NCBI GenBank assembly: GCA_965113315.1
Contig: OZ220373.1
Origin: Podarcis vaucheri
Taxonomy: Eukaryota
Direction: 5' to 3' (one strand)
DNA length: 64,000 bases
Shown here: positions 6,684 through 58,378 of the stretch, in pieces
Numbering within the stretch: the stretch's first letter is position 1
Layout: each line of letters begins with the position of its first letter
Position numbers and translations under genes: made by a program
The notes under the pieces: generated by a model
Seen by the model: only the letters and a program-made list of their open reading frames with translations
What the model was told of the DNA's origin: nothing
The model's database searches: none

Positions 6684-9195
6684 TACCAGAAAGGAAGAAA
6701 CTACCACTGACCCCTGTGGGTTTTATTTCAAAGTTAAGATGCTTACAATAGTGCTATCGCTCTCATGTAGTATTACAGGTTTCAGGAAGTCCATTGAGCT
6801 GGTGTGTTGCAATCCATCGATGGACAACTAAGGGTGAATTCGCCTGTGCATGTTTATAACTTGCAGATTGCAACAGTCCTATTCATTCATTCATTCATTC
6901 ATTCAGGGTGAACCCAGGTGGGCTTACAGTGGGGAGAGGGTGGAGGTACACGCAAAAGCTCTGCCTCCAGTATCTCAGCAAGCTCTGGTCAAGCTCTGGT
7001 GCAAAAATCTGAAGAAGGATTCTAAGTGCATTAATATGAATGCATGCGTCGGAAAATCCTGAAAGCACAGAGTTTCCATTGGTGGAAGCATTGAGCTCTG
7101 AACACAGCTAGATCATCCCTGCATACCTTCACTCTCAACACGATTCCCACTTTAAGCCCGCAGACATTCACACAAACACATACATAGGACTGTGATGTTA
7201 CCTACATGGGTCTAACAGCTGCCACTTATCAAATATCACCAAATGGAGTTTTTAAGTTACCTCATGTCATGCCAAGAACAGTATTTTTCAAAGGACACAA
7301 TTCCCTCAATTCAATTCTGAGTCACTGTTTGAGGAGATATCATCAGTTCTAAGAAAGGGTGAATGTATATATAGCAGCAAACAGAAGATCAGAATCCTGA
7401 AGAAAGCCCACTTAAGTAAAATTATCTTCACCTCCTGCCTGAAAGCAGGAAATGAAAGATCCATGTAATCTCATTGTACCCTGAATTCCTTGGTTCATTT
7501 AGAGACTTGCCAGGTTTAGACAATCCTAGGTTCAACTGTATAGTACTTTGTTCTGCTGTGGTTCTGGCCACCTGCTCTGTGTAAAAAAATAAATAAATTA
7601 CTTTTTTGGATGCAATTCTGCACACACTTAACTGGACCAAGTCTTGCTGAGCTGTGTGGTGCTTGCTTCTGAAGAGACATGCAAAATGACTGCTGTGTAA
7701 GATGCAGCCTTTTTTTAGCACACAGCTCTGTGGGGTTTACAGCATCTGTGATTTTTCAATAGAACTGTTAAGTGATCTGCCACAGTATTTCTGATGTTCA
7801 TGGAATGGATCTCTGAAAGGAAGGGGGCAGTTTTGGAAGAAACTAGTAAACTATTGTGTATGTTCCAGTTTCCCAGAACATAATGGTCAAGTCTTGGGGT
7901 GGTAGCAGTGTGATGACCTGGCTTCAAGGTTGACTGCCTGTAAAGATCTATGACACTGGAACTAAGTCATCACTTGCACCCTGTGACATCTTGCTTCTGC
8001 ATTTGGTTAAGCTATGAAATATTGCCTTAACAGATTTGATTTTTTTACTTTTTTCATAAAACAAACCAGCAGTCGAGGATGTGATCTAAGATTTACAGAA
8101 GTGATTATCTTCTCACTTGCTGACGTAAATTTGCCTTCTGGAAAACCCAGGTTGTGTCTCAATATGCTGCTAATGAACAATGAGTCAGAGCAACTGATGA
8201 TCTCTCCCTTTCCACAAGAGTTTTATAGTAATCGCAAATGCGAAATCATGGCAACTTCTATTCTGAGAGCTTTAGAAGAGAGGATCAGGACTCTTTTTGC
8301 TATTGCAGGCTCTTTGGCTTGACAGTTTTGAATGCTTTTCAGTAACGGGTTTATTTTTCCTCTTGATGTGATAATGTAAGATAGGGATGATCATTGCCAC
8401 CACTGATATTTAGACTTGAGAATGGTTGTTGTTGTTTTTATTGTCTCGTGAACTGACAGTGCAGAATTCCTGGATGCTTAAGGGAAGCAACTTGTTGCAT
8501 TTGATATATGCATTGCAGCAAAGCTCTTCTCAGGTGTTCAAATTGAATGCATAAAGAGCTTTAGCCGGGTAATGCACACAGGCTCTCCAGACAGGAGACC
8601 TTTGCGTGCTGAGCATGGAGGTCTGAGGCAGCTTCTATTGCATTCAGGTGAACCTGTGCTGTCAGTTCCCAGGTGTTTGGAGACACTGAAACACTGGACA
8701 CACTTGGAAGCCCCCTTCAGTTCATCTCTCTCAGTGCTCAGAGTGATGTGCCAGGGATGGGTACACTCAGATTGAGACAAATACACCTCAACCCATAGAT
8801 TAGAATTGCTGTGCATTTCTAACAAGTCTTATGGTGGCTCACTGCACCACCTGATGGCCATGAAAAATCCTAGAATTAATGCACTCTCGCTCTCGTTCTC
8901 CCTCCCCCTTCCAATATTATTGTTAATGTATTGCTGTGAGTTTGGGGGATTCTATGGTTGAAATAGCTAGGTCAGCTTCTTGGTAATGGCCCTAAAGTAT
9001 GGGTCATTAATATATGAAAGGAAGCTGCTCTGTTCCCAAGGCCAAATGGGTGGGTCCCCTTCCTCACCTGGCTGCTAGTGAGGACAAGAGCCTGTGTGAG
9101 AGAGCTGGGCTAGAAGCAGGCTGCAAAGTGAAAGAGAGAGAGAGATGCTTGATTTCTGCATGAAGCTGAGGCTGTGATTATGGGAGCATCAAGAT

Positions 9196-9335
9196 CAGGC
9201 ATAGGCAAACTCGGCCCTCCAGTTGTTTTGGGACTACAATTCCCATCATCCCTAGCTAACAGGAACAAGCAGTGTTCAGGGATGATGGGAGTTGTAGTCC
9301 CAAAACATTTGGAGGGCCAAGTTTGCCTGTGCCTG
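9196..9335. mobile_element. Palindromic hAT (Charlie-like) MITE
   Basis: TIR CAGGCATAGGCAAACT / AGTTTGCCTGTGCCTG; degenerate 8-bp TSD ATCAAGAT / ATCGAGAC. Confidence 0.85.
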
Positions 9336-12269
9336 ATCGAGACCTTCTGGGGTGTTAATGCTGCGAACCCCTCCATCGTAGACTCAGATTACATATGTGT
9401 GTCAATAAACCACATATCCTAAAGATACCACCATCTTTGCTGTGCCTCATTCCAAGGAAACAGAACCCTGGGTAAGCACCAGGAACCCCTGGAATCCTGC
9501 ACTGCTTGGAGATTGGGGTGGTGTGCAACAGTACAATTTAAAAAGTTTCAGAGTTCAGGTACAGAATCTCAGCTGGGATCAGAAATCACTCCGCCTTGCT
9601 TCTACCTGAGGTTTCAAAAAACCTGAGTTTACAAAACATGATCCCTAAAGGTTGGCGGAACCACCACCCCAATCTGAGGTGCAGGCCTGGGGGAAGGCAC
9701 AAATATCACCTATCAGACTATGGCAAATATGTGTGTGGTGACACACAGCCGCTGTTGTGGCAAGGTCAAATGTGGGAGAAGCTTTCCGGCCTTCTCACAC
9801 CGCAGCACAAAGACTTGCTGATTTTTTCACCCTTCCTCCTCGTCTCGCACTTACTCCAGACACTTCCGAGTACTTGGGTCGTGCAGAATGTAGTAATTTC
9901 TAATGCGGCTCTTGTGGTAAAGTGATTTTTTCAGGGGTGCTGCCACACAGCTCGTTGCCAAGGATGCAAAGGACCCTAGGTATACCTCTGCTTGTGGCCA
10001 TAGACTCATTGCGATTCACTGAGATGCCATTCATCAGTTGATCGTGTGGACCAGGTCGTTTGTAGCTTATCCTCTTACAACCACAATCCAAGTGCTGTTA
10101 CCTGGACCTAAGTTCCACAGAAATCACTGATGCAATAAACTGCGTTTCCTTTTTCAATTAAATGTTCGCTGGAACATATTTTTCCCCAGTTCACATTTTT
10201 GAGATAGTCCTGATTCCTTCTTTAATGCTAAAATACTATTCCTTCATAGAACTGAGCTGCCTGCCTTTGTGCTCTGATATTTTTCCATTTCCCATCTAGA
10301 TTTATGTAAGCCTTCTTTATTATTAGAAGTACTTATGGGCATACTGGAATAGTACCCATCTGCAGCCCAGCATAAGGGCGCTCTGAATCACTGCATGACG
10401 TCTGTGTCAACAGTTGCCCCATCATCAACAGGAAGCAGCTGCACAATCAGGTGTGGGCAGGTGGTTGAGTCCACTCTGGCAGTGGGGGGAAACGACATCT
10501 GAAAGTACATTAGGTCCCTGCAGCTCAGAGAGAAAGAGCACATCATCGCTTAAGGAAAATGGAATAAGGGGAATAATGGGAGATTCATTGTGCATGTAAA
10601 CTGAAAAGCTTCGGAAAGGGAAGGAAATCATTTGGCATCAGCAGAAAGTACCGTAAATGTCATCAGAGAAATTACACATAAGTGCATAGGACAGAAGGTC
10701 ATCTCAGTAAACTAAAATTCAAGTATAGCAATATTTATACATCACTACAGCTATTTTGGACTACAGCGCTCGTCATCCCTGACCATTGGCCATGGGGCTG
10801 ATGCGAGTTGGAGGTCAACAACTCTCGTGGGTACCATACTGGGTGCTTCATGTTGGCTACCCCTGCGTGGACTCTGGGAAGCTGCCTGATTCAAAAACTC
10901 CAAGCACCTGGGGAAATAAGAGTAAGAACAGCAAACATTGGAAAGAATGGTGATCATTTGGACCGTGGGTTGGCTAATGGCACAGGCTTGTGAACACAGC
11001 AGGCCATAGGATCTAGTGAAATACACTTTTCTGCGCTGTATCTGTGTTGCACCCATATAGGGAAAACTCCATGTGAACTCATGTTCACATGATTTGTATT
11101 TATGAAACTGAAGCTGTGGTTGAGTGGCGTATTGCCTGCTTACATTTGGCCTTGATGAGCACTGTAAAATTGTGGATGTAGTAATACTGCTCATTGCAAC
11201 TGCTGGTCTGTAAAGTCCTCTGGGTCTGTCTGATTTATTTACAGACAGTTGGTTAGGCACATAATGAGAGAGAGACAAACACAGCTGCCTCTTTTCCAAC
11301 AAACAAGCAATTTGCTCATCATCAGACTCAAATTCAAGGGTGGTGCATTAATTCTGAAATAATTGGCTTCTGTGATTTACATACACTTTTGGAGCTAATC
11401 CCATCACCTTCAGGTCAGATTGGGTAACGCAATTAGCATCCCTGCAAATTCTTCACAGTGAGGTACCCAGTTCGTGGCTTCTTCAGAAGACCTACCTCAA
11501 AAACGGATAGGATCAATAGTCTAAGGCCTTGAACATTGAGAAGCACCACAGGGCATTTCAAAATCCAAGGGATGACAATATTGGTAGCTACATCTCTGTT
11601 TTACAGATGTAGTAAAAGTGAGGGGATTTAAAAACAAAACAAAACAACCACCATCGTTCTCTGTAGATGAGAAAAGAATTTGCATTCAAAAACTGTTAAA
11701 TGGAAGTGGGCCACAGGAATTTTGTCATATTTACCTTCCTTTTGAGGTGATGGAGGGGTGTTTGCAAGTGTCCTTTTTTGCGTTGTATAAATAATCTCAT
11801 CTGCAGTCTCCACCCTGCAGGCTCCCTGGGTGCCCATACTTCAGTTAAAGGCATCATGAGGTAACTCTTCCCCAGTCATGTGTGTGTGTGGTGGGACAGA
11901 GCCATGGAACTGCCCCTCCCCCCTGACACCAGTGTCTCTGCTGCTTACCCCAAAGAGGATGGAGTGGGGCAATGGTGAGGTTAGGGCTGTCTGGTTCCAC
12001 ATACATAGGACTCTCAGCTTCTACAATTAGACAAATTACATTGTTAAAATAAATCATGCTTAAGTAAATGCGCTTACTTTCCATATCATTAGTGGCCTCC
12101 ACTCTTCAATCTATGGAATGGGCATCTTAACAAGTGCAACATAATGTTCATTTCACATTTGTAAGAAATGGACCTTTTCCTGCAGCAGCTCCCACACTTT
12201 GGAACTCCCATAAAGCTGACATATATTATAATATGCAATTATAACTGATTTAATTGCTATTAACAATTG

Positions 12270-12271
<2 letters not shown>

Positions 12272-12321
<50 letters not shown>

Positions 12322-12647
12322 TTTATATCATGCCCATCTGGTTGGGTTTCCCCCCCAGACACTCTGGCCGGCTCCCAACAGAATATTAAAAACACCAAAC
12401 ATTAAAAACTTCCCTAAAAAGGACTGCTTTCAGATGTTTTCTAAAAGTCAAATAGTTGTTAATTTCCTTGAATTCTGATGGGAGGGAGTTCCACAAGGTA
12501 GGCGCCACTACCAAGAAGGCCCTCTGCCTGGTTCCCTGTAACTTGGCTTCTCGCAGTGAGGGAACCACCAGAAGGCCCTTGGAGCTGGACCTCAGTGTCC
12601 GGGCTGAACAATGGGGGTAGAGACGCTCCTTCAGGGATATTGGGTCA
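12272..12647 (-). mobile_element. L2 LINE 3' fragment with (TAA)n tail
   Basis: RAFLVVAPTLWNSLP motif of the L2 ORF2 end; microsatellite tail at 12272-12321. Confidence 0.85.
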
Positions 12648-13235
12648 GTTTATCTCCATTCTGATTTTTTAAAAACCTTTGTTGACATTTTCAATGTATG
12701 TTTTATATTCTTTATAAATTGCTTAGCGGTTTTCTTTACAATTAAGCAGTATACAAAACATCTGGAGGGCACAAGATTGGGGGATGTTTGCTGTGGCAAA
12801 CATCAGTTCATGGGTGATTGGCAAAAAGAAAGCTGTAACTGCTGTAAGTGATAAAATGCTTTGGAATTCTGGTGCTGCAACTTGGATCAATGCAATGGTC
12901 TTTGGGGCAATGTGCCTGACCATATCATTCTTCTGCTAGAGAAGCTGAGGCTTTCTTACTGTCGGATAACACAAAATGGCTTAACTTTTGTCTGGAAGGC
13001 ATAGCAGATCAGACATTTGCTGCTTAATAGCTCTTCCCATGTCAAGCAAATTCCCTTCTCAATTCAGTCTCAGTCAGGGGCACCATCTTGGTGGTGGGGC
13101 TGAGGGGTCAAGGGTACCCCAATTTTTTCAATGAAGGCCACCTCAATATTCAGCTGTGTGTGGTGCAAGCATTTCACGTGGTGTGCTCACATCACTTGCA
13201 CACGCCAAGTGCTCTGATGCACCTTAAGCAGAATA

Positions 13236-13476
13236 CAGTGGTACCTCGGGTTAAGTACTTAATTCGTTCCGGAGATCCGTTCTTAACCTGAAACTGTTCT
13301 TAACCTGAAGACCACTTTAGCTAATGGGGCCTCCTGCTGCCGCCGTGCCACCGGAGCATGATTTCTGTTCTCATCCTGAAGCAAAGTTCTTAACCTGAAG
13401 CACTATTTCTGGGTTAGCGGAGTCTGTAACTTGAAGTGTATGTAACCTGAGGCGTATATAACCCAAGGTACCACTG
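13236..13476 (+). mobile_element. Tc1/mariner (Tigger/pogo-like) MITE
   Basis: TIR CAGTGGTACCT...AGGTACCACTG; 5' TA target site. Confidence 0.88.
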
Positions 13477-14198
13477 ATTATTTTTTTTAAGTATATGGGG
13501 GAAGGGTAAATAATCATATAAACTGCTGTCAGCATTGAAGTTTTCAGCAGTAACCATGTACGATGAAACTATATTTGCCATAAAGCAGGCTAAGTAATGT
13601 GCTTGAAGAAAAAAATCAAAGTAGATTTTGCCATAGGCTGCAGACTTGAAAGCTTGCAAACTCTTACCTGAAAAACATGGTTGCAGTGAAATAGATCACT
13701 TTTCTTGTTCATCCCAAAGAATGTAAGCTACAGAACATGACAACAGTGGTCTACTTTAAAATAATATAAATTGCAAAACTGATAGCTATTCCCCCCAAAG
13801 CCTAATAACTTTCATGTAATAATTCAAATTTGATAAGTGTTGAGTTGGAAACTGTCAAATAGGCTGCATATTTTAACAAATGGATCATAGCTTCCTTTTC
13901 AATCAGATCCACAAAAGATACGGTTATGAATTAAACTAAAATAAGAGAATGTCAGAGAATGTCAGCCTAGCCATAGATCAGCGTTTCATTTTTCATAAAT
14001 GACTCAGCTGGTAGCTATGGCAACTTCTCACTCGTATCATCACCATGTTAGCTGTGGCCTAGTTCTCACTGAGGCAGGAAATATTTGCCTGGGCAGTGTC
14101 ACTTCAGACTGCAGGTGAGCTCTCACACAACTGCATGTTACCCCACATGAAGACCCCCCCCCCGTCACTGTTTACAGCCCCCAGCCAAATCATGTATA

Positions 14199-14440
14199 CA
14201 GTGGTACCTCGGGTTACATACGCTTCAGGTTACATACGCTTCAGGTTACACACTCCACTAACCCAGAAATAGTGCTTCAGGTTAAGAACTTTGCTTCAGG
14301 ATAAGAACAGAAATCGGGCTCCGGCGGCGCGGTAGCAGCAGGAGGCCCCATTAGCTAAAGTGGTGCTTCAGGTTAAGAACAGTTTCAGGTTAAGAACGGA
14401 CCTCCGGAACGAATTAAGTACTTAACCCGAGGTACCACTG
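14199..14440 (-). mobile_element. Tigger-like MITE, same family, inverted
   Basis: TIR CAGTGGTACCTCGGGTTA; TA TSD on both sides. Confidence 0.9.
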
Positions 14441-14477
14441 TATATATTACTGTAACTCAGGATGCCACATTTGACAT

Positions 14478-16063: not shown

Positions 16064-16222
16064 TAGTGAATGGTGAACAGGCTTCATATTCATATTTGTC
16101 AATTTCCATTTAGGGTCAAAATATTTCAAGATGGAGAAGGATAAGAATGTTATAGTGAATTGTACCATCTTCTGCTGAATACTACACCACCCTGGTTGAT
16201 ACAATAGGATTCCTGGAAATTA

Positions 16223-16451
16223 CAGTGGTACCTCTGGTTAAGTACTTAATTCGTTCCGGAGGTCCGTTCTTAACCTGAAACTGTTCTTAACCTGAGGTAC
16301 CACATTAGCTAATGGAGCCTCCTGCTGCTGCCGCCGCGCCGCCAGAGCATGACTTCTGTTCTCATCCTGAAGCAAAGTTCTTAACCTGAGTTACTATTTC
16401 TAGGTTAGCGGAGTCTGTAACCTGAAGTGTATGTAACCCGAGGTACCACTG
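16223..16451 (+). mobile_element. Tigger-like MITE
   Basis: Same TIRs; TA TSD. Confidence 0.9.
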
Positions 16452-16607
16452 TATTGCTACTTTCTCTGTAGAACATATCAAGCTAATGCAACCTGCTGGC
16501 TTTGCCTTTCGCCCTGGTGACTGAACAGTTTCTCTGTTTCACAAGAGAAATTGGGGCTGTACTCTGGATTTAGGTAGAAAAGACTTTTAAAATATGTCCA
16601 TCCAAAA

Positions 16608-16861: not shown

Positions 16862-17181
16862 ATCCAAAATGATCAGAGGCCATAAGCATATATTAAGTGA
16901 CAACAGGGGGCAGCAAGGCACTTGTTTTTTGCTGAAGGATTAACAGTATATCAGGTGAAGCTGGAATGAAACCATCTTGCATGAATGAATTGGGCTTTTA
17001 AAATAAAAAAGTAAATAAAAAGTGGAAGTAAACAGTTTGAATCCTAAGTGACAAGATAAATGGTGCTGTGTGACTGCAGCTGAATTCTAAAGTTTGGAGA
17101 CCGTGGTTTAAAATGTCTGGGTGAATCTCCTACCCAGAACTGGAGGATTTTGTTCATTCATTTATTAAAAATATTTGTGTA

Positions 17182-17435
17182 CAGTGGTACCTCTGGTTAC
17201 GTACTTAATTCGTTCTGGAGGTCCGTTCTTAACCTGAAACTGTTCTTAACCTGAAGCACCAATTTAGCTAATGGGGCCTGCTGCTGCTGCTGCTGCTGCT
17301 GCTGCGCCGCCGGAGCACGATTTCTGTTCTCATCCTGAAACAAAGTTCTTAACCCGAGGTACTATTTCTAGGTTAGCGGAGTCTGTAACCTGAAGCGTAT
17401 GTAACCTGAAGCGTATGTAACCCAAAGTACCACTG
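17182..17435 (+). mobile_element. Tigger-like MITE with an expanded (CTG)n tract
   Basis: Same TIRs; TA TSD; about nine CTG units at 17278-17304. Confidence 0.9.
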
Positions 17436-17705
17436 TACTACCTTCCACATCAAAGAAATGGCAAAGTGGATTACAGAATAATAAAACAACATTCATCACA
17501 CAGCAAATAAAAAAGGCGTAGCATAACAATAAACAGAAGAATAGTAGAGTGAAAATAATAACCATATTACATATTGCTGCTATTCTAAAGGCTGTTTTGT
17601 TGGTTCTGTGGTATCTTTTGACAGGGAAGCATATTTAACAAATAGCGTTAGAGTGTACAAAATAAAGGAAATTTTATTTTGGAACTTCTCTAAGCAGCAT
17701 GCAAA

Positions 17706-21284: not shown

Positions 21285-22798
21285 AGAGTGAAGTCAAATG
21301 GGCCTTAGAAAGCACTGCAAATAACAAGGCCAGTGGAAGTGATGGTATTCCAGCTGAACTGTTTAAAATTTTAAAAGATGATGCTGTTAAGGTGCTACAC
21401 TCAATATGCCAGCAAGTTTGGAAAACTCAGCAGTGGCCAGAGGATTGGAGAAGATCAGTCTACATCCCAATCCCAAAAAAAGGCAGTGCCAAAGAATGCT
21501 CCAACTACCGCACAATTGCACTCATTTCACACGCTAGCAAGGTTATGCTTAAAATTCTACAAGGCAGGCTCAAGCAGTATGTGGACCGAGAACTCCCAGA
21601 AGTGCAAGCTGGATTTCGAAGGGGCAGAGGAACCAGAGACCAAATTGCAAACATGCGCTGGATTATGGAGAAAGCTAGAGAGTTCCAGAAAGACATCTAC
21701 TTCTGCTTCATTGACTATGCAAAAGCCTTTGACTGTGTTGACCACAGCAAACTATGGCAAGTTCTTAAAGAAATGGGAGTGCCTGATCACCTCATCTGTC
21801 TCCTGAGAAATCTCTATGTGGGACAAGAAGCTACAGTTAGAACTGGATATGGAACAACTGATTGGTTCCAAATTGGGAAAGGAGTACGGCAAGGCTGTAT
21901 ATTGTCTCCCTGCTTATTTAACTTATATGCAGAATTCATCATGCGAAAGGCTGGGCTGGATGAATCCCAAACCGGAATTAAGATTGCCGGAAGAAATATC
22001 AACAACCTCAGATATGCAGATGACACAACCTTGATGGCAGAAAGTGAAGAGGAATTAAAGAACCTTTTAATGAGGGTGAAAGAGGAGAGCGCAAAATATG
22101 GTCTGAAGCTCAACATCAAAAAAACGAAGATCATGGCCACTGGGCCCATCACCTCCTGGCAAATAGAAGGGGAAGAAATGGAGGCAGTGAGAGATTTTAC
22201 TTTCTTGGGCTCCATGATCAGTGCAGATGGTGACAGCTGGTCACGAAATTAAAAGACGCCTGCTCCTTGGGAGAAAGGCGATGGCAAACCTAGACAACAT
22301 CTTAAAAAGCAGAGACATCACCTTGCCAACAAAGGTCCGTATAGTAAAAGCCATGGTTTTCCCAGTAGTGATGTATGGAAGTGAGAGCTGGACCATCAAG
22401 AAGGCTGATCGCCAAAGAATTGATGCTTTTGAATTATGGTGCTGGAGGAGACTCTTGAGAGTCCCATGGACTGCAAGAAGATCAAACCTCTCCATTCTGA
22501 AGGAAATCAGCCCTGAGCGCTCACTGGAAGGACAGATCGTGAAGCTGAGGCTCCAATACTTTGGCCACCTCATGAGAAGAGAAGACTCCCTGGAAAAGAC
22601 CCTGATGTTGGGAAAGATGGAGGGCACAAGGAGAAGGGGACGACAGAGAATGAGATGGTTGGATGGTGTTCTTGAAGCTACCAGCATGAGTTTGATCAAA
22701 CTGCGGGAGGCAGTGGAGGACAGAGGTGCCTGGTGTGCTCTGGTCCATGGGGTCACGAAGAGTCGGACACGACTAAACGACTAAACAACAACAACAAC
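21285..22798 (+). mobile_element. RTE-BovB LINE, 5'-truncated; RT domain with one frameshift near 22238
   Basis: RT motifs NYRTIAL, QAGFR, FIDYAKAFD, GVRQGCILSP and LRYADD (YADD at 22013-22024); C-terminus GVTKSRTRLND*; (CAA)n tail; 7-bp TSD ACAGTGG. Confidence 0.95.
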
Positions 22799-22799
22799 A

Positions 22800-23016
22800 C
22801 AGTGGTACCTCAGGTTAAGTATTTAATTCGTTCCGGAGGTCCGTTCTTAACCTGAAACTGTTCTTAACCTGAAGCACCACTTTAGCTAATGGGACCTTCT
22901 ACTGCCACCGTGCTGCCGGAGCCCGATTTCTGTTCTTATCCTGAAGCAAAGTTCTTAACCTGAAGCACTATTTCTGGGTGTGTAACCTGAAGCGTATGTA
23001 ACCCGAGGTACCACTG
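22800..23016 (+). mobile_element. Tigger-like MITE whose left TIR was the BovB target
   Basis: TIRs as in other copies; original TA plus CAGTGG displaced to 21277-21284; right TA at 23017-23018. Confidence 0.9.
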
Positions 23017-23714
23017 TATGTTTTCTAAAGTCTGCTTTTATGACCTTTTTTCACAAGGGGGTGCTAAAGCCTACTAGATGTCTTATAAAAGCATTATCAT
23101 TTTCTGATATTTCATTTTTTTTAAAAAAAAAATCCCCTTTTTAATCAGCCTCTGGCTTTTTGAGAGGCAAGCCAAGCATATTTCACCAGACTGTTGATGA
23201 TTCAGAGGAGAGCTATGGCATGACTCATCGCTTCTGAAATCACAGCCTAAGGGAGGGGGAGCAACTGGCTTTTAAAATCACCCCATGGAGAAGCAACAAT
23301 TCCTGCTTTTGCTGACGGGAAAACCAAGCATTGAATTGAATAAAGTAAGTGAGCTAGGTCAGGATACTCGCAACTGGAATCTCTGCCACCGGATGATTTT
23401 CTGTATTTTAGAAAACAAAACAAAACAGCCAATTCACTCTATGAGATTAAAGGCCTGGAAAAAGGGAGGAGTAGAAGAATACTGTTGAAGAATACTACAG
23501 AAGCTAGATTTGAGGCTCAGTTACTTGAAGGTTAAAAGAAAGAAGAAGAGCCAGCAAACCTTTCTTCTGCTAATTCTTCAGAGGGGGCTGGGATGTCACA
23601 AACATTGTCAATTTGCCACATGCTTGCTGATTCATCTTTTGCAGGAACCGAATGCTGTTTATGAAAAGGCAATTGTTCTGTAATGTAAAGGTATACCCTC
23701 CAACATTTAACTGG

Positions 23715-24056
23715 TCTTGAGAGTCCCACAGACTGCAAGAAGATCAAACCTATCCATTCTGAAGGAAATCAGCCCTGAGTGCTCACTGGAAGGACAGATC
23801 GTGAAGCTGAGACTCCAATACTTTGGCCACCTCATGAGAAGAGAAGACTCCCTGGAAAAGACCCTGATGTTGGGAAAGATGGAGGGCACAAGGAGAAGGG
23901 GACGACAGAGGACGAGATGGTTGGATAGTGTTCTCAAAGCTACCAGTATGAGTTTGACTAAACTGTGGGAGGCAGTGGAAGACGGAAGTGCCTGGCGTGT
24001 TCTGGTCCATGGGGTCACAAAGAGTTGGACACGACTAAACGACTAAACAACAACAA
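23715..24056 (+). mobile_element. RTE-BovB 3' fragment
   Basis: Highly similar to 22453-22798; (CAA)n tail. Confidence 0.93.
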
Positions 24057-24140
24057 AATTATTATTATATTTATACCCCCACCCATCTGACTGGGTTTCC
24101 CCAGCCACTCTGGGCAGCTTCCAACAAATATAGAAACATT

Positions 24141-24481
24141 AAAGGTAAAGGTAAAGGTACCCCTGCCCGTACGGGCCAGTCTTGCCAGACTCTAGGGTTG
24201 TGCGCTCATCTCACTCTATAGGCTGGGAGCCAGCGCTGTCCGCAGACACTTCCGGGTCACGTGGCCAGCGTGACGAAGCTACACAGAAACGCTGTTTACC
24301 TTCCCGCTAGTAAGCGGTCCCTATTTATCTACTTGCACCCGGGGGTGCTTTCAAACTGCTAGGTTGGCAGGCGCTGGGACGAGCAACGGGAGCACACCCC
24401 GTCACGGGGATTCGAACCGCCGACCATGCGATCAGCAAGTCCTAGGCGCTGAGGTTTTACCCACAGCGCCACCCGCGTCCC
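24141..24481 (-). mobile_element. Sauria SINE, full length
   Basis: Minus strand has a GGGACGCGGGTGGCGCTGTGGG head, a B box GGTTCGAATCCC and an (ACCTTT)n tail. Confidence 0.92.
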
Positions 24482-25332
24482 AGATAAAAACATTAGAAAA
24501 GATTAAACATTTTTTAAAAGACCGTATACAGGGCTGCCTTCAGATGTCTTCTAAAGATTGTATAGTTAATTATTTCCTTGGCTCAGGAGTCACATAGCTC
24601 CATGCCCTCCAAAATTTCTCCGATGAAAATAGGGACGACCTAAAGAAAAGTGGGACATTGCACCGGGATGGTTTCTATAAATCTGGGACTGTCCCTGGAA
24701 AATAGGGGTCTGTAAAGGCAGAGGTTTTGTTGCACATTCCATTTGTTTCTTCTTTCTATTTTTCACATTTGCAGTGGACACCTGGTATTTATCAGTGATT
24801 CTGCTTCAGTCCATAGTCTATTTTAAGGTGGTGGATCACAGAGGTTGCTTCCTTCAGGCTCATTAATTTATCTCAAAGCAATTAGCTTGATATGGAAGTG
24901 GCTGGGGAGCCCTTACAAAGTGGTCAGGCACTCCCTCCAGGTTGTAATGCCTGGAATTCAAACAGGCAACACCCAGCCTGTCATATCTAACTTCCTTTTA
25001 CACTGTAGACTTAATTCTTTCTAACCAGTATCCACATGATTAAAATTAAATATTTTTGGGGGGGTAAAAAATATGCATAATGTTAATCATGATTTTGGCA
25101 CCCAGAGCAAAGTCTCCCTGCATTGCACCCCCCTCCCCCACCCCAGTTTTGGTCCTGCTCGTATACTTATAAATTTAAATATATTTTGCTTTCCCTTGCT
25201 AGTTGGCTATGTGAGATTGGATGGAATTTGGTGCAAAAACCTTATACCATTATAACAGTACAATCCCATCTATATCTACTCAGAAGCCATTAATTTTAGA
25301 GGGGTTTATTTGAAGGTAAGAGGGTGCAGGAT

Positions 25333-25598
25333 TGATCCTAGAATGTCCCACTTTTCCTTAGGATGTCCCTATTTTCATTGGAGAAATGTTGAAGGGTATG
25401 GAGTTATCTGACCCTCGAGCCGTCTAAAGGCAATCCTGTATAGGAAAGGTTTTTTTAAAAAAAAGTTTAATGTTTTATATATGTTTTTATATATATTGGA
25501 ATCTGCCCAGAGTGGCTGGGGTGACCTAGTAAGATGCATGGAGTATAAATAGTAAAATTATCATTAGGGAACGGGTCGTCCCTGTTTTGGAGGGCATG
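25333..25598 (+). mobile_element. 5'-truncated copy of the composite DNA transposon
   Basis: GATGTCCCTATTTT...TTGAAGGGTATG, then L2-tail-like sequence, then terminal TTGGAGGGCATG. Confidence 0.7.
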
Positions 25599-26705: not shown

Positions 26706-27270
26706 ATACTATCTTGCCAGAGTGGTGCATGCTCTGGTTATCTCCCGCTTGGACTACTGCAATGCACTCTACGTGGGGCTACCTTTGAAGGTGACCCGGA
26801 AACTGTAATTAATCCAGAATGCGGCAGCTAGACTGGTAACTGGGAGTGGCCGCCGGGACCACATAACACCGATTCTGAGAGATCTGCATTGCCTCCCAGT
26901 ACGTTTCCGAGCACAATTCAAAGTGTTGGTGCTGACCTTTAAAGCCCTAAATGGCCTCGGTCCTGTATACCTGAAGGAGCATCTCCACCCCCATCGTTCA
27001 GCCCGGACACTGAGATCCAGCGCCGAGGGCCTTCTGGCGGTTCCGTCATTGTGAGAAGTAAGCTTACAGGGAACCAGGCAGAGGGCCTTCTCAGTAGTGG
27101 CACCTGCCCTGTGGAACGCCCTCCCAGCAGATGTCAAAGCAATAAACAACTATTTTACTTTTAAAAGACAACTGAAGGCAGCCCTCTTTAGGGAAGTTTT
27201 TAATAATATTCAGTTGGAAGCCGCCCAGAGTGGCTGGGGGAACCCAGCCAGATGGGCGGGGTATAAATAA

Positions 27271-27312
<42 letters not shown>
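26706..27312 (+). mobile_element. L2 LINE 3' fragment with (ATT)n tail
   Basis: HALVISRLDYCNALY, IQNAAARLV and AFSVVAPALWNALP motifs. Confidence 0.9.
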
Positions 27313-27313
<1 letters not shown>

Positions 27314-28746
27314 GACACACATTGGAAGCTGCTACAAATGGTACAGGCACCCTCTGCACTCGAGAGACACATTGGGACACATTTGGTGGAGATGGGTTTG
27401 TAAAAATAAAATAAAGGCAACGTACAATATAGAGAGCCTCTTTATGGAAGTTAGTGGGAAAAGGATAGCTTGCTGCACTTCACAGTTTTGGATTCATATG
27501 TGTGGACTTTCTCGTCAGTGCAGGGGCTGCACAAGCCGGTCACCATCCTGCTTCATGCTAGACAAAACTCTCTGGCTCTTGCAATTGAACAATGTGTGCA
27601 AAGGGCAGCTACAGCCCTGGCATCTAAACCAGCTATCTTGTGATTTGTGATAGCATGACTGTTGTTATGCTGGCATTATGTTCAGTGCTCTTCATCCTTT
27701 TTCCAGGCGCCTTCTCTCTGAATTCTGCAGTGGCCAAGTGGGATTTGTGTCAGCACTGGAACCATATTAGTGTGTGTCATATTTGGTGTAATCATCATCA
27801 TTATTGTGAGCCCCTCCAGACTAACACCCCCCCCTTCCCAAATGTATTCTTCAGCATGTCATTGGAACAATAATAGTGCATTAGTGTGGATTTATATGGG
27901 ACCATTCATACATCATTATGCTTTATTAGTTGTTCTGCAATGCCCCTTTGGTGCTACCGCATGATTGCCACTCTTGCACTATAACACAACCAAGGCAATA
28001 AAATAAATAAACCGAAACACCTGCGGTTTTTTTAAAAAAAAGAAGGTACAAGAAATGAATCTGCAGGTCTGCCGCAAAACTTTTGCAGGTGCAAAGAGAA
28101 ATGAAAATGGCACAATAAAAAGGGTATCTGGAGGGACCTTGTGTTTAACCATGCTTGAAGTGGGAATTGCTTGGGCTCACTTTCCATATTAGTGGTGAAA
28201 TTCTGGGCTAAGTACTTAGTTAAGGCACAGATGGCATAATCAAGGCACTAGGGCAATTTAAACACTCAAAAGCAAATAAATGTGTAATCAAGCAATTCTG
28301 GCTCTCGGCAGCTAACATTTTAATGCCACACCATGTTGTGAGAGAGTAAAAAGATCAGAATCCTACCACCAGAATCCATAGGTGGATCCATTAGCGAGTA
28401 CGATATTTTAATCTCACAGATGATTGAATGCTGTAGGCTCACATTTCCATGGTTTATTAGTTTTATATCTGGACAGATTTGTACATTTCACTTTCTTTTA
28501 CTAGCAGCTTATTAGCTTATTTATTTATGCCCAAATTCAACCTATTTTGACAACAGTACTGAAATGTTCTAAACCATCATACATTTGGGTTGAAATTGCA
28601 CTTAAAGCACAATCCTACGCATGTCTACTCAGGAGCAAGTCCCCCTGAGTTCAACAGGGCTTATTTCCAGGTGTGTACACTAAGACTGTGGCCCTTGCTT
28701 CTTATATTCTTCCTTTACTGTGGTGGCATACACAGGACTTCACTCC

Positions 28747-29760
28747 CAGACCCTCCAAGTGTCCCTATTTTCCAGGGATTGCCCCAGATTTACAGAAGCC
28801 ATCCTGGTTTCTGATTTGACCCCAGAATGTCCCGCTTTTCCTTAGGATGTCCCTATTTGCATCAGAAAAATGTTGGAGGGTATGGAGTTATGTGAACCCC
28901 CAAGCCAAGGAGAAAAGTAACTATACAACCTTCAGAAGGCGCAGCCCTGCATAGGGAAGTTTTATAAATGTTTAATTATGTTGTTATATATGTTGGAAGC
29001 CACCCAGGGCACACTCCATCTGGTACGCAGGCTGAGACCCTACCTGCCCGCAAATTGTTTTGCCACAGTGGTGCATGCTCTAGTTATCTCCCACTTGGAC
29101 TACTGCAATGCCCTCTACGTGGAGCTACCTTTGGAGGTGACTTGCAAACTGCAATTAATCCAGAATGCGGCAGCTAGACTGGTGACTGGGAGTGGCTGCC
29201 GAGACCATATCACACTGGTCCTGAGAGATCTGCATTGCCTCCCAGTACATTTCTGAGCACAATTCAAAGTGTTGGTGCTGACCTTTAAAGCTCTAAATGG
29301 CCTCGGTCCTGTATACATAAAGGAGCATCTCCACCCCCATCGTTCAGCCCGGACACTGAGATCTAACGCTGAGGCCCTTCTGGCGGTTCCCTCACTGCGA
29401 GAAGTGAGATTGCAGGGAACCAGGCAGAGGGCCTTCTCGGTAGTGGCACCTGCCCTATAGAATGCCCTCCCAGCAGATATGAAGGCAAAAAGCAACTATC
29501 TTACTTTTAAAAGACATCTGAAGGCAGCCCTGTTTAGGGAAGTTTTTAATGTTTGATGCTGTATTGTGTTTTAATATTGGAAGCTGCCCAGAGTGGCTGG
29601 GGAAACCCAGCCAGATGGGCGGGGTATAAATAAATTGTTGTTGTTGTTGTTGTTGTTATTGTTATTATCCCAGTCAGATTGGTGGGGTATAAATAATAAA
29701 ATTATTATGATGATGAAATAGGACATCCCTATTTTTATCAGAGAAATATTGGAGGGTATG
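28747..29760 (+). mobile_element. Composite non-autonomous DNA transposon with captured L2 tail and a nested younger L2
   Basis: TIR CAGACCCTCCAA / TTGGAGGGTATG; 6-bp TSD CACTCC at 28741-28746 and 29761-29766; internal duplicate right end at 28873-28884. Confidence 0.8.
29010..29668 (+). mobile_element. L2 LINE 3' fragment (nested)
   Basis: LHLVRRLRPYL...VVHALVISHLDYCNALY...LIQNAAARLV; (GTT/ATT)n tail. Confidence 0.9.
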
Positions 29761-30469
29761 CACTCCCCCATCCTGTCACCGATCGGGTCCAGACTTGTGT
29801 GCCTTCAGAAAGCAGTGGTTTCCTTTATTTGTGCAAACATATCTGGTAGGTTTTATTCTGCTGAAAAATATTAAGCTTCTGGTGGGTGAGGCACATTTTT
29901 ATCTTGTTTAAACTGAGCCAAGTCTTATCATGTAGGCGGAGGACTGTCTGGGCTAGAAGTTCAACCCCCAGATGTTTTGGCCTATGATTTCCATCTTTTG
30001 GGCTCGTTGAAAGTTGCTTCACAGTTACCATTGCCCTTTTCAAGAAGTGGCCGGGGAACTTTCCTGTTCTTTTTTTTTCTTTCCAAAAAATGTTTTTATT
30101 AAAGATTTCTTAAAATAAGTGCATTGTATCTTTTTTCAAGTTGCGTTTTCTACAGATCTGTTTCGTTTGTTGCGGGACATTAGCGTTGCATCCAGTGTTC
30201 GGTTAGGAAGAAAAGGGGAGAGAATGGACAAACTAGGGAGCACCCAAATGCTCTGGCTAATACACCACCATTTACATGCCCTCTTAAACAATCCGGTAGT
30301 AAAATCAGCAGCAACTCGGCCCTCGACAGTCTTCGAACTCTCCTGTTTTGAGGCTAAGGCTTCGTCTTTGCCTGACAGAAACAAGCTCTCTCCAAAGTAG
30401 CAAGAAAGTGGGATCGACTTCTTCCTCGCTCAGTCTGCCTGAGAGAACTGCGCTCAGTTCAAACAAGAT

Positions 30470-32691: not shown

Positions 32692-32974
32692 GAAGGGCTG
32701 TAGCTCAGGGGTAGAACATCTGGCTTTGCATGTAGAACAGGCATAGGCCAACTCGACCCTCCAGATGTTTTGGGACTACAACTCCCATGATCCCTAGCTA
32801 ACAGGACCAGTGGTCAGGGATGATGGGAACTGTAGTCCCAAAACATCTGGAGGGCCGAGTTGGCCTATGCCTGATGTAGAAGGTTCCAGGTTCAATCCCT
32901 AGGTAGCATTGGTTAAGACCCTGAAGAGGTTCTGCCAACAGTGCTGAGCTGCATGGACCAATGGTCTGAGTCAG
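32692..32974 (+). mobile_element. tRNA-derived SINE interrupted by a hAT MITE
   Basis: TAGCTCAGGGGTAGA A box, GGTTCAATCCC B box after the insertion, GGACCAATGGTCTGA tail. Confidence 0.75.
32738..32873. mobile_element. Palindromic hAT MITE (family of 9196-9335)
   Basis: TIR CAGGCATAGGCCAACTCG / CGAGTTGGCCTATGCCTG; perfect TSD ATGTAGAA. Confidence 0.92.
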
Positions 32975-42186: not shown

Positions 42187-42438
42187 ACCTAGGGCTTGCC
42201 TAGCAGTTCGAAAGCACCCCCGGGGGCAAGTAGATAAATAGGTACCGCTTACCAGCGGGAAGGTAAACGGCGTTCCGTGTGCGGCTCTGGCTCGCCAGAG
42301 CAGCGTTGTCACGCTGGCCACGTGACCCGGAAGTGTCTTCGGACAGCGCTGGCCCCCGGCCAATAGATGGGCGCACAAACCCCAGAGTCTGTCAAGACTG
42401 GCCCGTTCGGGCAGGGGTACCTTTACCTTTACCTTTAC
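42187..42438 (+). mobile_element. Sauria SINE, 5'-truncated with an internal deletion
   Basis: Body near-identical to 48404-48647; (ACCTTT)n tail. Confidence 0.9.
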
Positions 42439-45721: not shown

Positions 45722-45842
45722 ATTATTATTATTAATACCCCACCCATCTGGCTGGGTTTCCTGAGCCATTCTGGGAGGCTTACAGCATATCTAAAAACAT
45801 AAAACATCAAGCATTAAAAACTTCCTGATACAGGGTTGCCTT
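45722..45842 (-). mobile_element. L2 3'-tail fragment
   Basis: ATACCCCACCCATCTGGCTGGGTTTCC, as in the other L2 tails. Confidence 0.65.
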
Positions 45843-50400: not shown

Positions 50401-50533
50401 TATCCCCAAACTCAGCCCTCCAGATGTTTTGAGACTACAACTCCCATCATCCCTAGCTAACAGGACCAGTGATCAGGGATAATGGGAGTTGTAGTCCCAG
50501 ATATCTAGAGGGCTGAGTTTGGGGGGGTGCCTG
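50401..50533. mobile_element. Palindromic hAT MITE (relative of the 9196 and 32738 copies)
   Basis: CCCCAAACTCAGCCCTCCAGATG...GAGGGCTGAGTTTGGGG. Confidence 0.8.
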
Positions 50534-52184: not shown

Positions 52185-52865
52185 ATCATAGAACTGTAGA
52201 GATGGAAGGGATCCCAAGTGTCATCTAGCCCGGCCTTCTGTAATGCAGTATACCAGAAGGAATCTCCCCCCCCCCCCATGTTCAGCCCAGATGCTGAGGT
52301 CCAGCTTCTGAGGATTTCCTCACTGCGAGAAGTGAGGTTACAAGGAACCAGGCAGAGGGCCTTCTCGGTAGTGGCCTCCCATCAGATACCAAGGAAATAA
52401 ACAACTATCTGACTTTTAAAAGACATCTGAAGGCAGCCCTGTTTAGGGAAGTTGTAAATGTTTGATGCTATATCGTGTTTTTAATGTTCTGTTGGGAGCC
52501 GCCCAGATTGGTTGGGAAGGCCCAGCCAGATGGGTGGGTATAAGTAATAAATTATCATTATTACTTTGTTGTTGTTGATGATGATGATGATGCAGGAGTC
52601 TGAACTAAATCCATGACCGATGACCACCCAACTTCTGTTTAAAAACCTCCCATGAAGGAAAGCCCACAACCTCCTGAGGGAGTCCGTTCTACTGTCGAAC
52701 ACCTCCCACCGTCAGAAAGTACTTCCTGATGTTTAGTCAGAATCTCCCTTCTTGTAACTTGAATCCATCGGTTCAGGTCTTACCTTCTGGAGTAAGAGAA
52801 AACAAGCTTGCTCCATCTTCCATGTGACAGCCCTTTGGATATTTGAATATGGCTATCATATCTCT
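52185..52865 (-). mobile_element. CR1 3' fragment interrupted by a + strand L2 3' fragment (about 52279-52590)
   Basis: CR1 tail AATCATAGAA; L2 segment SLREVRLQGTRQRAFSVVA; CR1 resumes at TGCAGGAGTCT. Confidence 0.8.
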
Positions 52866-57862: not shown

Positions 57863-58378
57863 CCGTATATTTTTCGCTCTATAAGACACACCCGACTATA
57901 AGAAGCACCTAGTTTTTAGAGGAGGAAAACAAGAAAAGCCAGCATGAGCCACAGACACGCTCGCTCGGCGTGAGTCTTTAAAGGTAGAGCGGCTCTTGCT
58001 GGCTTTTCTGGGAGATAGGAGAAGGGACTGACTGGCTGTCCTCCATCCCTTCTCCCACCTCCCTGAAAAGCCAGACCAAGCTGCGCAGCTATCTCTGAAG
58101 CCTGCATAGCAAGAGGGAGACCTGCGCAACGCCTCTTGTTGTGCTGCCTTCCCAGTGAAGCAGGATGAGGGATGGAAGGGAGCCATAGGGAGCCCCTTTC
58201 ATCCCTCATCCTGCTTCACTGAGAAGCCAGCAGACCAAGAGGTGCTGCGCAGCTCTCCCTCATGCTGTGCTGGCTTCAGCGATAGCTGCGCAGCCTGCAT
58301 TCACTCCATAAGACGCACGCACACTTCCCCTTACTTTTTAGGAGGAAAAAAGTGTGCCTTATGGAGCGCAAAATACGG
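57863..58378. mobile_element. Tc1/mariner (Tc2/pogo-like) non-autonomous element with an internal palindrome
   Basis: Ends CCGTATATTTTTCGCTCTATAAG / CTTATGGAGCGCAAAATACGG; TA TSD. Appears nested in an older hAT-like element (about 57678-58522). Confidence 0.8.

Follow-up and report, generated by a model that had tools for sequence, protein, structure and literature searches.

A composite DNA transposon family, probably of hAT6 type, with 6-bp target-site duplications and a LINE 3' end between two right termini in Podarcis vaucheri

The stretch of Podarcis vaucheri DNA analysed here (64,000 nucleotides, hereafter the window) holds three copies of a repeat that resembles a DNA transposon at its ends and the 3' tail of a LINE in its interior, and the question it raises is whether such copies spread as one mobile unit and, if so, how that unit was assembled and which type of enzyme moved it. 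The layout proposed in the initial annotation, namely a left end, an inner right end, a LINE tail, and an outer right end, was confirmed in the window copies, and the positions of copies 1 and 2 and of their flanking target-site duplications (TSDs) are exactly as given there. Copy 3 does belong to the family as claimed, but its left end, and with it one of the two flanks that a TSD requires, is missing. The features of the three copies are as follows.

28741..28746, plus strand: left TSD of copy 1, CACTCC
28747..28884, plus strand: copy 1, left end through inner right end (consensus 1-138), with the inner right end at 28843-28884
28885..28905, plus strand: copy 1, linker, some 20 bp long, in which LINE likeness is weak at best
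28906..29010, plus strand: copy 1, captured LINE 3' end, initial segment (final ORF2 codons and 3' UTR)
about 29011..29668, plus strand: copy 1, later nested 5'-truncated LINE (ORF2 C-terminus and its own tail), outside the mobile consensus
29669..29715, plus strand: copy 1, remainder of the captured tail with a trinucleotide stretch
29716..29760, plus strand: copy 1, outer (functional) right end
29761..29766, plus strand: right TSD of copy 1, CACTCC
23692..24712, minus strand: copy 2, with two repeats nested in it and part of the outer right end missing
23686..23691 and 24713..24718, plus strand: TSDs of copy 2, both TAAAGG
about 24140..24483, minus strand: SINE-like repeat inside copy 2, with further copies at 42199, 48279 and 58958
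about 23715..24056, plus strand: second repeat inside copy 2, 94% identical to 22453-22794
25332..25598, plus strand: copy 3, left-truncated, of the internal-deletion subfamily (deletion of about 34 bp)

The left end of copy 1 contains a 12-bp imperfect inverted repeat along with GTCCC/GGGAC subterminal motifs. In copy 2, some 12 bp are missing close to the left end, as is most of the outer right end; its two nested repeats are presumably a Sauria SINE (24140..24483) and a RTE/Bov-B-related element (23715..24056). The mobile unit had been described as a 1-kb element; the real unit, however, is about 377 bp long, and the kilobase length of copies 1 and 2 is due to the later nested insertions. 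The window also contains LINE 3' fragments that stand free of the element and come from the cargo's LINE family (12283-12639, 26714-27305, 45722-45842, and 52270-52576), another repeat of about 245 bp present in five copies 82-93% alike (13232-13476, 14197-14443, 16221-16454, 17180-17437, and 22796-23019), and palindromic repeats at 1355-1530, 9181-9338, 32728-32888, 50404-50524, and 58077-58297.

To move from three copies to a family, the 1.61-Gb genome was searched, and the first 264 bases used as query returned 5,232 candidates genome-wide, 40 of which were scored. A 35-base left end had 414 exact matches, versus none for the reversed control. Because the exact left end is present in only three of 50 copies picked by other criteria, a rough estimate of about 7,000 copies is obtained, and three element fragments in 0.54 Mb of loci unselected for the element lead to an equally rough figure of about 9,000. 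The 377-bp consensus, built from 22 hand-picked uninterrupted copies, begins with the left end, which runs into the inner right end (1-138), and continues with the linker of about 20 bp, the LINE-like segment (159-331), and the outer right end; its ends read CAGACC..GGTATG, and its terminal inverted repeat spans 12 bp with one mismatch. At least three sister families (loci L273-L322) share the same termini around unrelated fillers of approximately 0.8-1.1 kb, 0.33-0.65 kb, and 0.5 kb, and these, too, generate 6-bp TSDs. The family appears to be old, as non-CpG divergence is 7.5-8% in a sample biased toward conserved copies. A 49-bp mini-element (L299) with a five-of-six TSD match was also encountered, as were two element copies lying head to head or rearranged within single loci (L068 and L040).

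The TSDs were analysed in 101 copies, 30 of them best matches and 71 chosen by their exact left end, and the terminal right end was detectable in 67. A 6-bp duplication was exact in 15 of these 67 copies and matched at five or six positions in 37, compared to a mean of 0.9 and a maximum of 6 in shuffled controls, and hence the consistent 6-bp TSD, which the initial annotation had set as its own test, held up in a genome-wide sample. In the same 67 copies, lengths of 2-5 and 7-10 bp stayed at shuffle level; at 8 bp, the length that defines canonical hATs, no copy showed an exact match and only one a near match. A 7- or 8-bp TSD with shifted boundaries, hinted at by two window copies, was also considered, but moving the boundaries by one or two bases yielded nothing longer. 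In the sister MITE described below, scored likewise, 25 of 30 copies had an 8-bp TSD, which indicates that the method does discriminate between lengths. The 30 copies (of 67) that fall short of a five-of-six match fit aged and rearranged copies or ends called in error, and such a shortfall is in part expected. The target site shows a central AT preference, with A at position 3 and T at position 4, each in 52 of the 101 left flanks. In the set with variant left ends, a 6-bp TSD was found in seven of the 14 copies having both ends. Among tail-bearing copies of the 71-copy set, finally, the TSD was located at the outer right end in 22 of 35 and at the inner right end in none of 36.

The 6-bp TSD had been presented as an oddity against the general hAT rule of 8 bp, the latter as stated in the available text of PMC3942097. 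Such a view can no longer be maintained, as hATs with a 6-bp TSD already constitute a named group, hAT6, placed inside a lineage that includes Blackjack (Kapitonov and Jurka 2007, as cited in the portion of PMC12730594 consulted). The family described here resembles hAT6 in its 6-bp TSD, its short inverted repeats, and the presence of local hATs with similar ends; it differs in that its right end is doubled and it carries a LINE tail, and the likeness as judged here is one of TSD and repeats. Both ends of the family align with the ends of two local hAT elements.

L131:3184-6252 (C26, about 6.62 Mb): hAT of 3,069 bp with TAAGGTTACCA ends, an 8-bp TSD (7 of 8), and a 651-residue frame that contains PF05699 and is free of interruptions
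L160-L189, L155, L248, L134, and L135: sister MITE, 154-218 bp long, with ends of the form CATAGCTGTCAAC, a left end that has 608 exact matches, and 8-bp TSDs

The end-likeness scores were reached by 0, 0, 0, and 4 of 2,000 shuffles, a control that is lenient toward low-complexity motifs. PF05699 is carried both by the 3,069-bp hAT and by the transposase remnants of the sister MITE, and remnants with CATAGCTGTCAAC-type flanking ends are located at C27, C28, and C29. Judging by their terminal motifs, these local hATs would group with Blackjack. The sister MITE is close to our family in that its left and right ends are homologous and its size is near that of the tail-free core, but it differs in its 8-bp TSD, in having transposase remnants, and in the absence of LINE cargo from the six copies examined. 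Three further long frames, at C26 and C38, are more distant from the 651-residue hAT frame (31-33% identity).

Short terminal inverted repeats, along with ends that align to PF05699-bearing elements, are what hAT6-type membership would entail, and we consider this family of about 377 bp, with its 6-bp TSD and one LINE 3' end between two right termini, to be probably a non-autonomous hAT6-type (Blackjack-lineage) transposon mobilised in trans. The mobilising enzyme was probably a hAT of the Blackjack/hAT6 lineage, which would now be lost or would have escaped detection. The initial annotation had called for a search for a transposase-coding element with these ends; none was found near the 62 PF05699 matches inspected, out of 64 (flanks of 1.5-5 kb, with the best 150 of 369 candidates scored), nor did three protein searches, in which the best candidates were scored, or the inspection of 8 kb around 20 variant left ends yield an autonomous partner. 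One locus (L142) did show a 12-base right-end match near a transposase remnant, but this match faces away from the gene and runs into unrelated sequence. The failure to find a partner transposase, along with the fact that the nearest, transposase-bearing hAT relatives of the ends make 8-bp and not 6-bp TSDs, would be in line with an enzyme from another superfamily known for 6-bp TSDs, such as IS3EU, Polinton, or an unclassified group. We deem such an origin improbable, however, because both ends align to those of hAT-transposase elements, and because the first two candidates differ in structure from what is seen here: IS3EU requires inverted repeats of more than 30 bp of the form TAYGG..CCRTA (PMC12730594, in the portion consulted) instead of 12 bp and CAGACC..GGTATG, and Polintons have long inverted repeats, 584 bp in anole, and a multi-gene body (PMC3014272, in its available text), against a 377-bp element with a 12-bp repeat.

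The cargo could be traced to a LINE. Over 173 bp (consensus 159-331), the tail shares 80-81% identity with the 3' ends of LINEs that have a long open ORF2, and in one of these LINEs a 1,031-residue frame contains PF03372, PF14529, and PF00078, corresponding to endonuclease and reverse transcriptase; the source of the cargo is hence the 3' end of an ORF2 with both activities, followed by a simple-repeat tail, as expected of a LINE. The protein of the main LINE is 97-98% identical to Podarcis muralis database entries, and its relatives are found in lizards (52-98%) and in fish or coral (43-52%), all named only as reverse transcriptase proteins with no clade name. Its C-terminal motif LDYCNALY would fit the L2 clade, to which it may belong. 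In the 71 copies chosen by the left end only, the tail module (at least 30% covered) was present in 53, and 50 span one and the same junction in a single alignment. Furthermore, 11 diagnostic sites, picked on data overlapping those scored, were compared, and the element-type base occupied 7-11 of them in 28 of 32 element tails and 0-4 of them in 43 of 45 free ones. The four low-scoring element tails all belong to the deletion subfamily, and a few free tails have some of the element-type bases, which suggests that the donor would have been an older LINE subfamily. A shared junction together with fixed differences from free tails points to one capture, followed by spread as a unit, in agreement with the earlier claim that the MITE-LINE junction is constant and that the chimera spread as such. 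Multiplication must also have continued after capture, as a whole subfamily has in common a 34-bp deletion in the tail, along with a linked substitution, found in seven of the 50 junction-spanning copies and in copy 3 of the window (an eighth match to the pattern was unrelated and left out of the count). More copies with this deletion occur among elements with a CATA left end, and a looser pattern search returned 229 such left ends, older tail-bearing copies included.

Younger LINEs were seen to have inserted into the captured tail in four elements, one in the window (29011-29668) and three elsewhere (L028, L032, and L197). Such repeated entry, and the very presence of a LINE 3' end, might recall SINE-like retrotransposition driven by the LINE tail, or independent LINE insertions into many MITE copies. 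Either scenario seems to us extremely unlikely, as the copies extend past the tail to the inverted repeat, begin with a complete left end, and show a constant TSD of 6 bp, which is at odds with the former, and independent events would not give a shared junction and shared diagnostic bases. That this is a real composite non-autonomous DNA transposon is well supported.

As to how the composite was formed, an arrangement in which the right end is joined directly to a second right end has 58 exact matches, versus 451 for the junction between right end and linker. Of 27 distinct loci with this doubled-end junction, the left end is present in 20 and the tail in one, and an exact 6-bp TSD was seen by eye in 8 of the 20. 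The tail-free doubled-end form measures 183 bp. In the 71-copy sample, as counted by eye, tail-free copies comprised about six with doubled ends and about five with a single end, the single-ended 138-bp form being known only from this sample. When the composite is compared to the 183-bp form, the insert has TATGGA on both sides, is 5'-truncated, and closes in the LINE simple-repeat tail. It is likely that the 183-bp form was the substrate that received the LINE, and the initial proposal of a MITE of about 140 bp capturing an L2 end and a second terminus together stands as far as the composite is concerned, but the order of events was probably different, given that a tail-free doubled-end form exists. 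A comparison of 50 tail-bearing with 29 tail-free copies revealed no diagnostic site and an equal divergence (8.0% vs 7.5%, p 0.94), so that neither form stands out as the ancestral one.

We lean toward a model in which a MITE of 183 bp whose right end was doubled gained a 5'-truncated LINE at the end-end junction. In such a model, the LINE would have inserted between the two right ends via target-primed reverse transcription, leaving TATGGA as a flanking direct repeat and some extra bases at the 5' join. A transposase acting in trans would then have cut at the left end and at the outer right end, and gap repair would have multiplied the composite to several thousand copies. Insertions of the L2 clade produce duplications of 3-5 bp, often with extra bases at the 5' side (PMC4245944, in its available text), which fits direct LINE insertion. 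At 17 free or nested LINE insertions, however, no TSD was clear by eye, and TATGGA may consequently be microhomology only.

Alternatively, a hAT6-like vehicle might have taken up the tail as flanking or filler DNA, starting from a short MITE located some 20 bp upstream of what remained of a LINE; a right end farther out might have been used, or the template might have switched while a gap was being repaired, and the 183-bp form would in either case be a deletion product. This route would account for a linker that is not clearly LINE-derived, and the unrelated fillers of the sister families, one of which has at its right end the same GAATAGG prefix as the outer end here, along with the recurrence of right-end tandem duplications and collapses in the family, show a comparable plasticity; filler uptake is also known for lizard hobo hATs (PMC3014272, in its available text). 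We nonetheless consider it rather unlikely, as the captured piece is 5'-truncated and stops exactly at the LINE trinucleotide tail, like a fresh insertion, and as doubled-end tail-free copies are about as common as single-end ones, even though deletion between 42-bp repeats should far outpace deletion between 6-bp repeats. A separate observation concerns the 45-bp right end, which has been repeated in tandem, about ten times at most, within single elements (L196, L202, L207, L208, and L076), some of which still show a TSD, as a minisatellite born from a transposon end.

The preferred model of LINE insertion and subsequent spread by transposase implies that some LINE tails reached their present location by cut-and-paste. 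This had been claimed for apparent L2 tails at the outset, and it is supported, yet the share is small. Among 29 tail matches in 0.54 Mb of loci that had been retrieved for unrelated purposes, and thus not a random sample, none was captured; one tail (L226), first flagged as element-linked, turned out to belong to a free LINE in the opposite orientation. By extrapolation, captured tails would amount to about 5% (approximately 5,000 vs some 87,000). Trinucleotide units could be measured in 37 tails, with at least five perfect units in 14 (one of which belongs to a nested LINE) and at least eight in nine. Snake CR1 LINE tails are reported to seed microsatellites (PMC3157835, in its available text), and the two systems are alike in that LINE 3' tails seed trinucleotide repeats; here, unlike in snakes, the tail was spread by a DNA transposon and represents a small share of such tails.

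Precedents exist for other parts of this picture. The available text of PMC3014272 reports that anole hobo hATs carry fragments of RTE Bov-B and CR1 as well as of Sauria-SINE, thereby raising their copy number. These Anolis elements (hobo_AC) are comparable to ours as lizard hATs that amplify retroelement fragments and include many filler-bearing non-autonomous families, but theirs have 8-bp TSDs, TAGGCTT ends, and kilobase cargo, and the two tables of that paper list no family with the ends described here or with a 6-bp hAT TSD. The family was absent from the papers covered by a non-exhaustive literature search, and it would most likely be catalogued in repeat libraries and supplements. Both the 6-bp hAT group and retroelement cargo in lizard hATs are already known, and it is only the family itself that was not found in print.

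Taken as a whole, the data could be read as a lacertid clan of hAT6-type MITEs whose dominant family arose when one LINE inserted between doubled right ends, with about 5,000 tails and their microsatellite seeds then spread by cut-and-paste, although we regard the case for this complete scenario as evenly balanced. Repeat maskers would split each copy into DNA-transposon and LINE pieces, and such split annotation would add a few per cent to the count of LINE 3' ends and assign them wrong ages. The family offers a clean example of a DNA transposon dispersing a retroelement tail and a microsatellite seed, a process already known in anole. A 6-bp family beside an 8-bp family with homologous ends, moreover, represents a natural pair with regard to the hAT cutting stagger and its change from 8 to 6, and if the partner transposase were found in a relative, these sister families could be used to test what sets the length of hAT TSDs.
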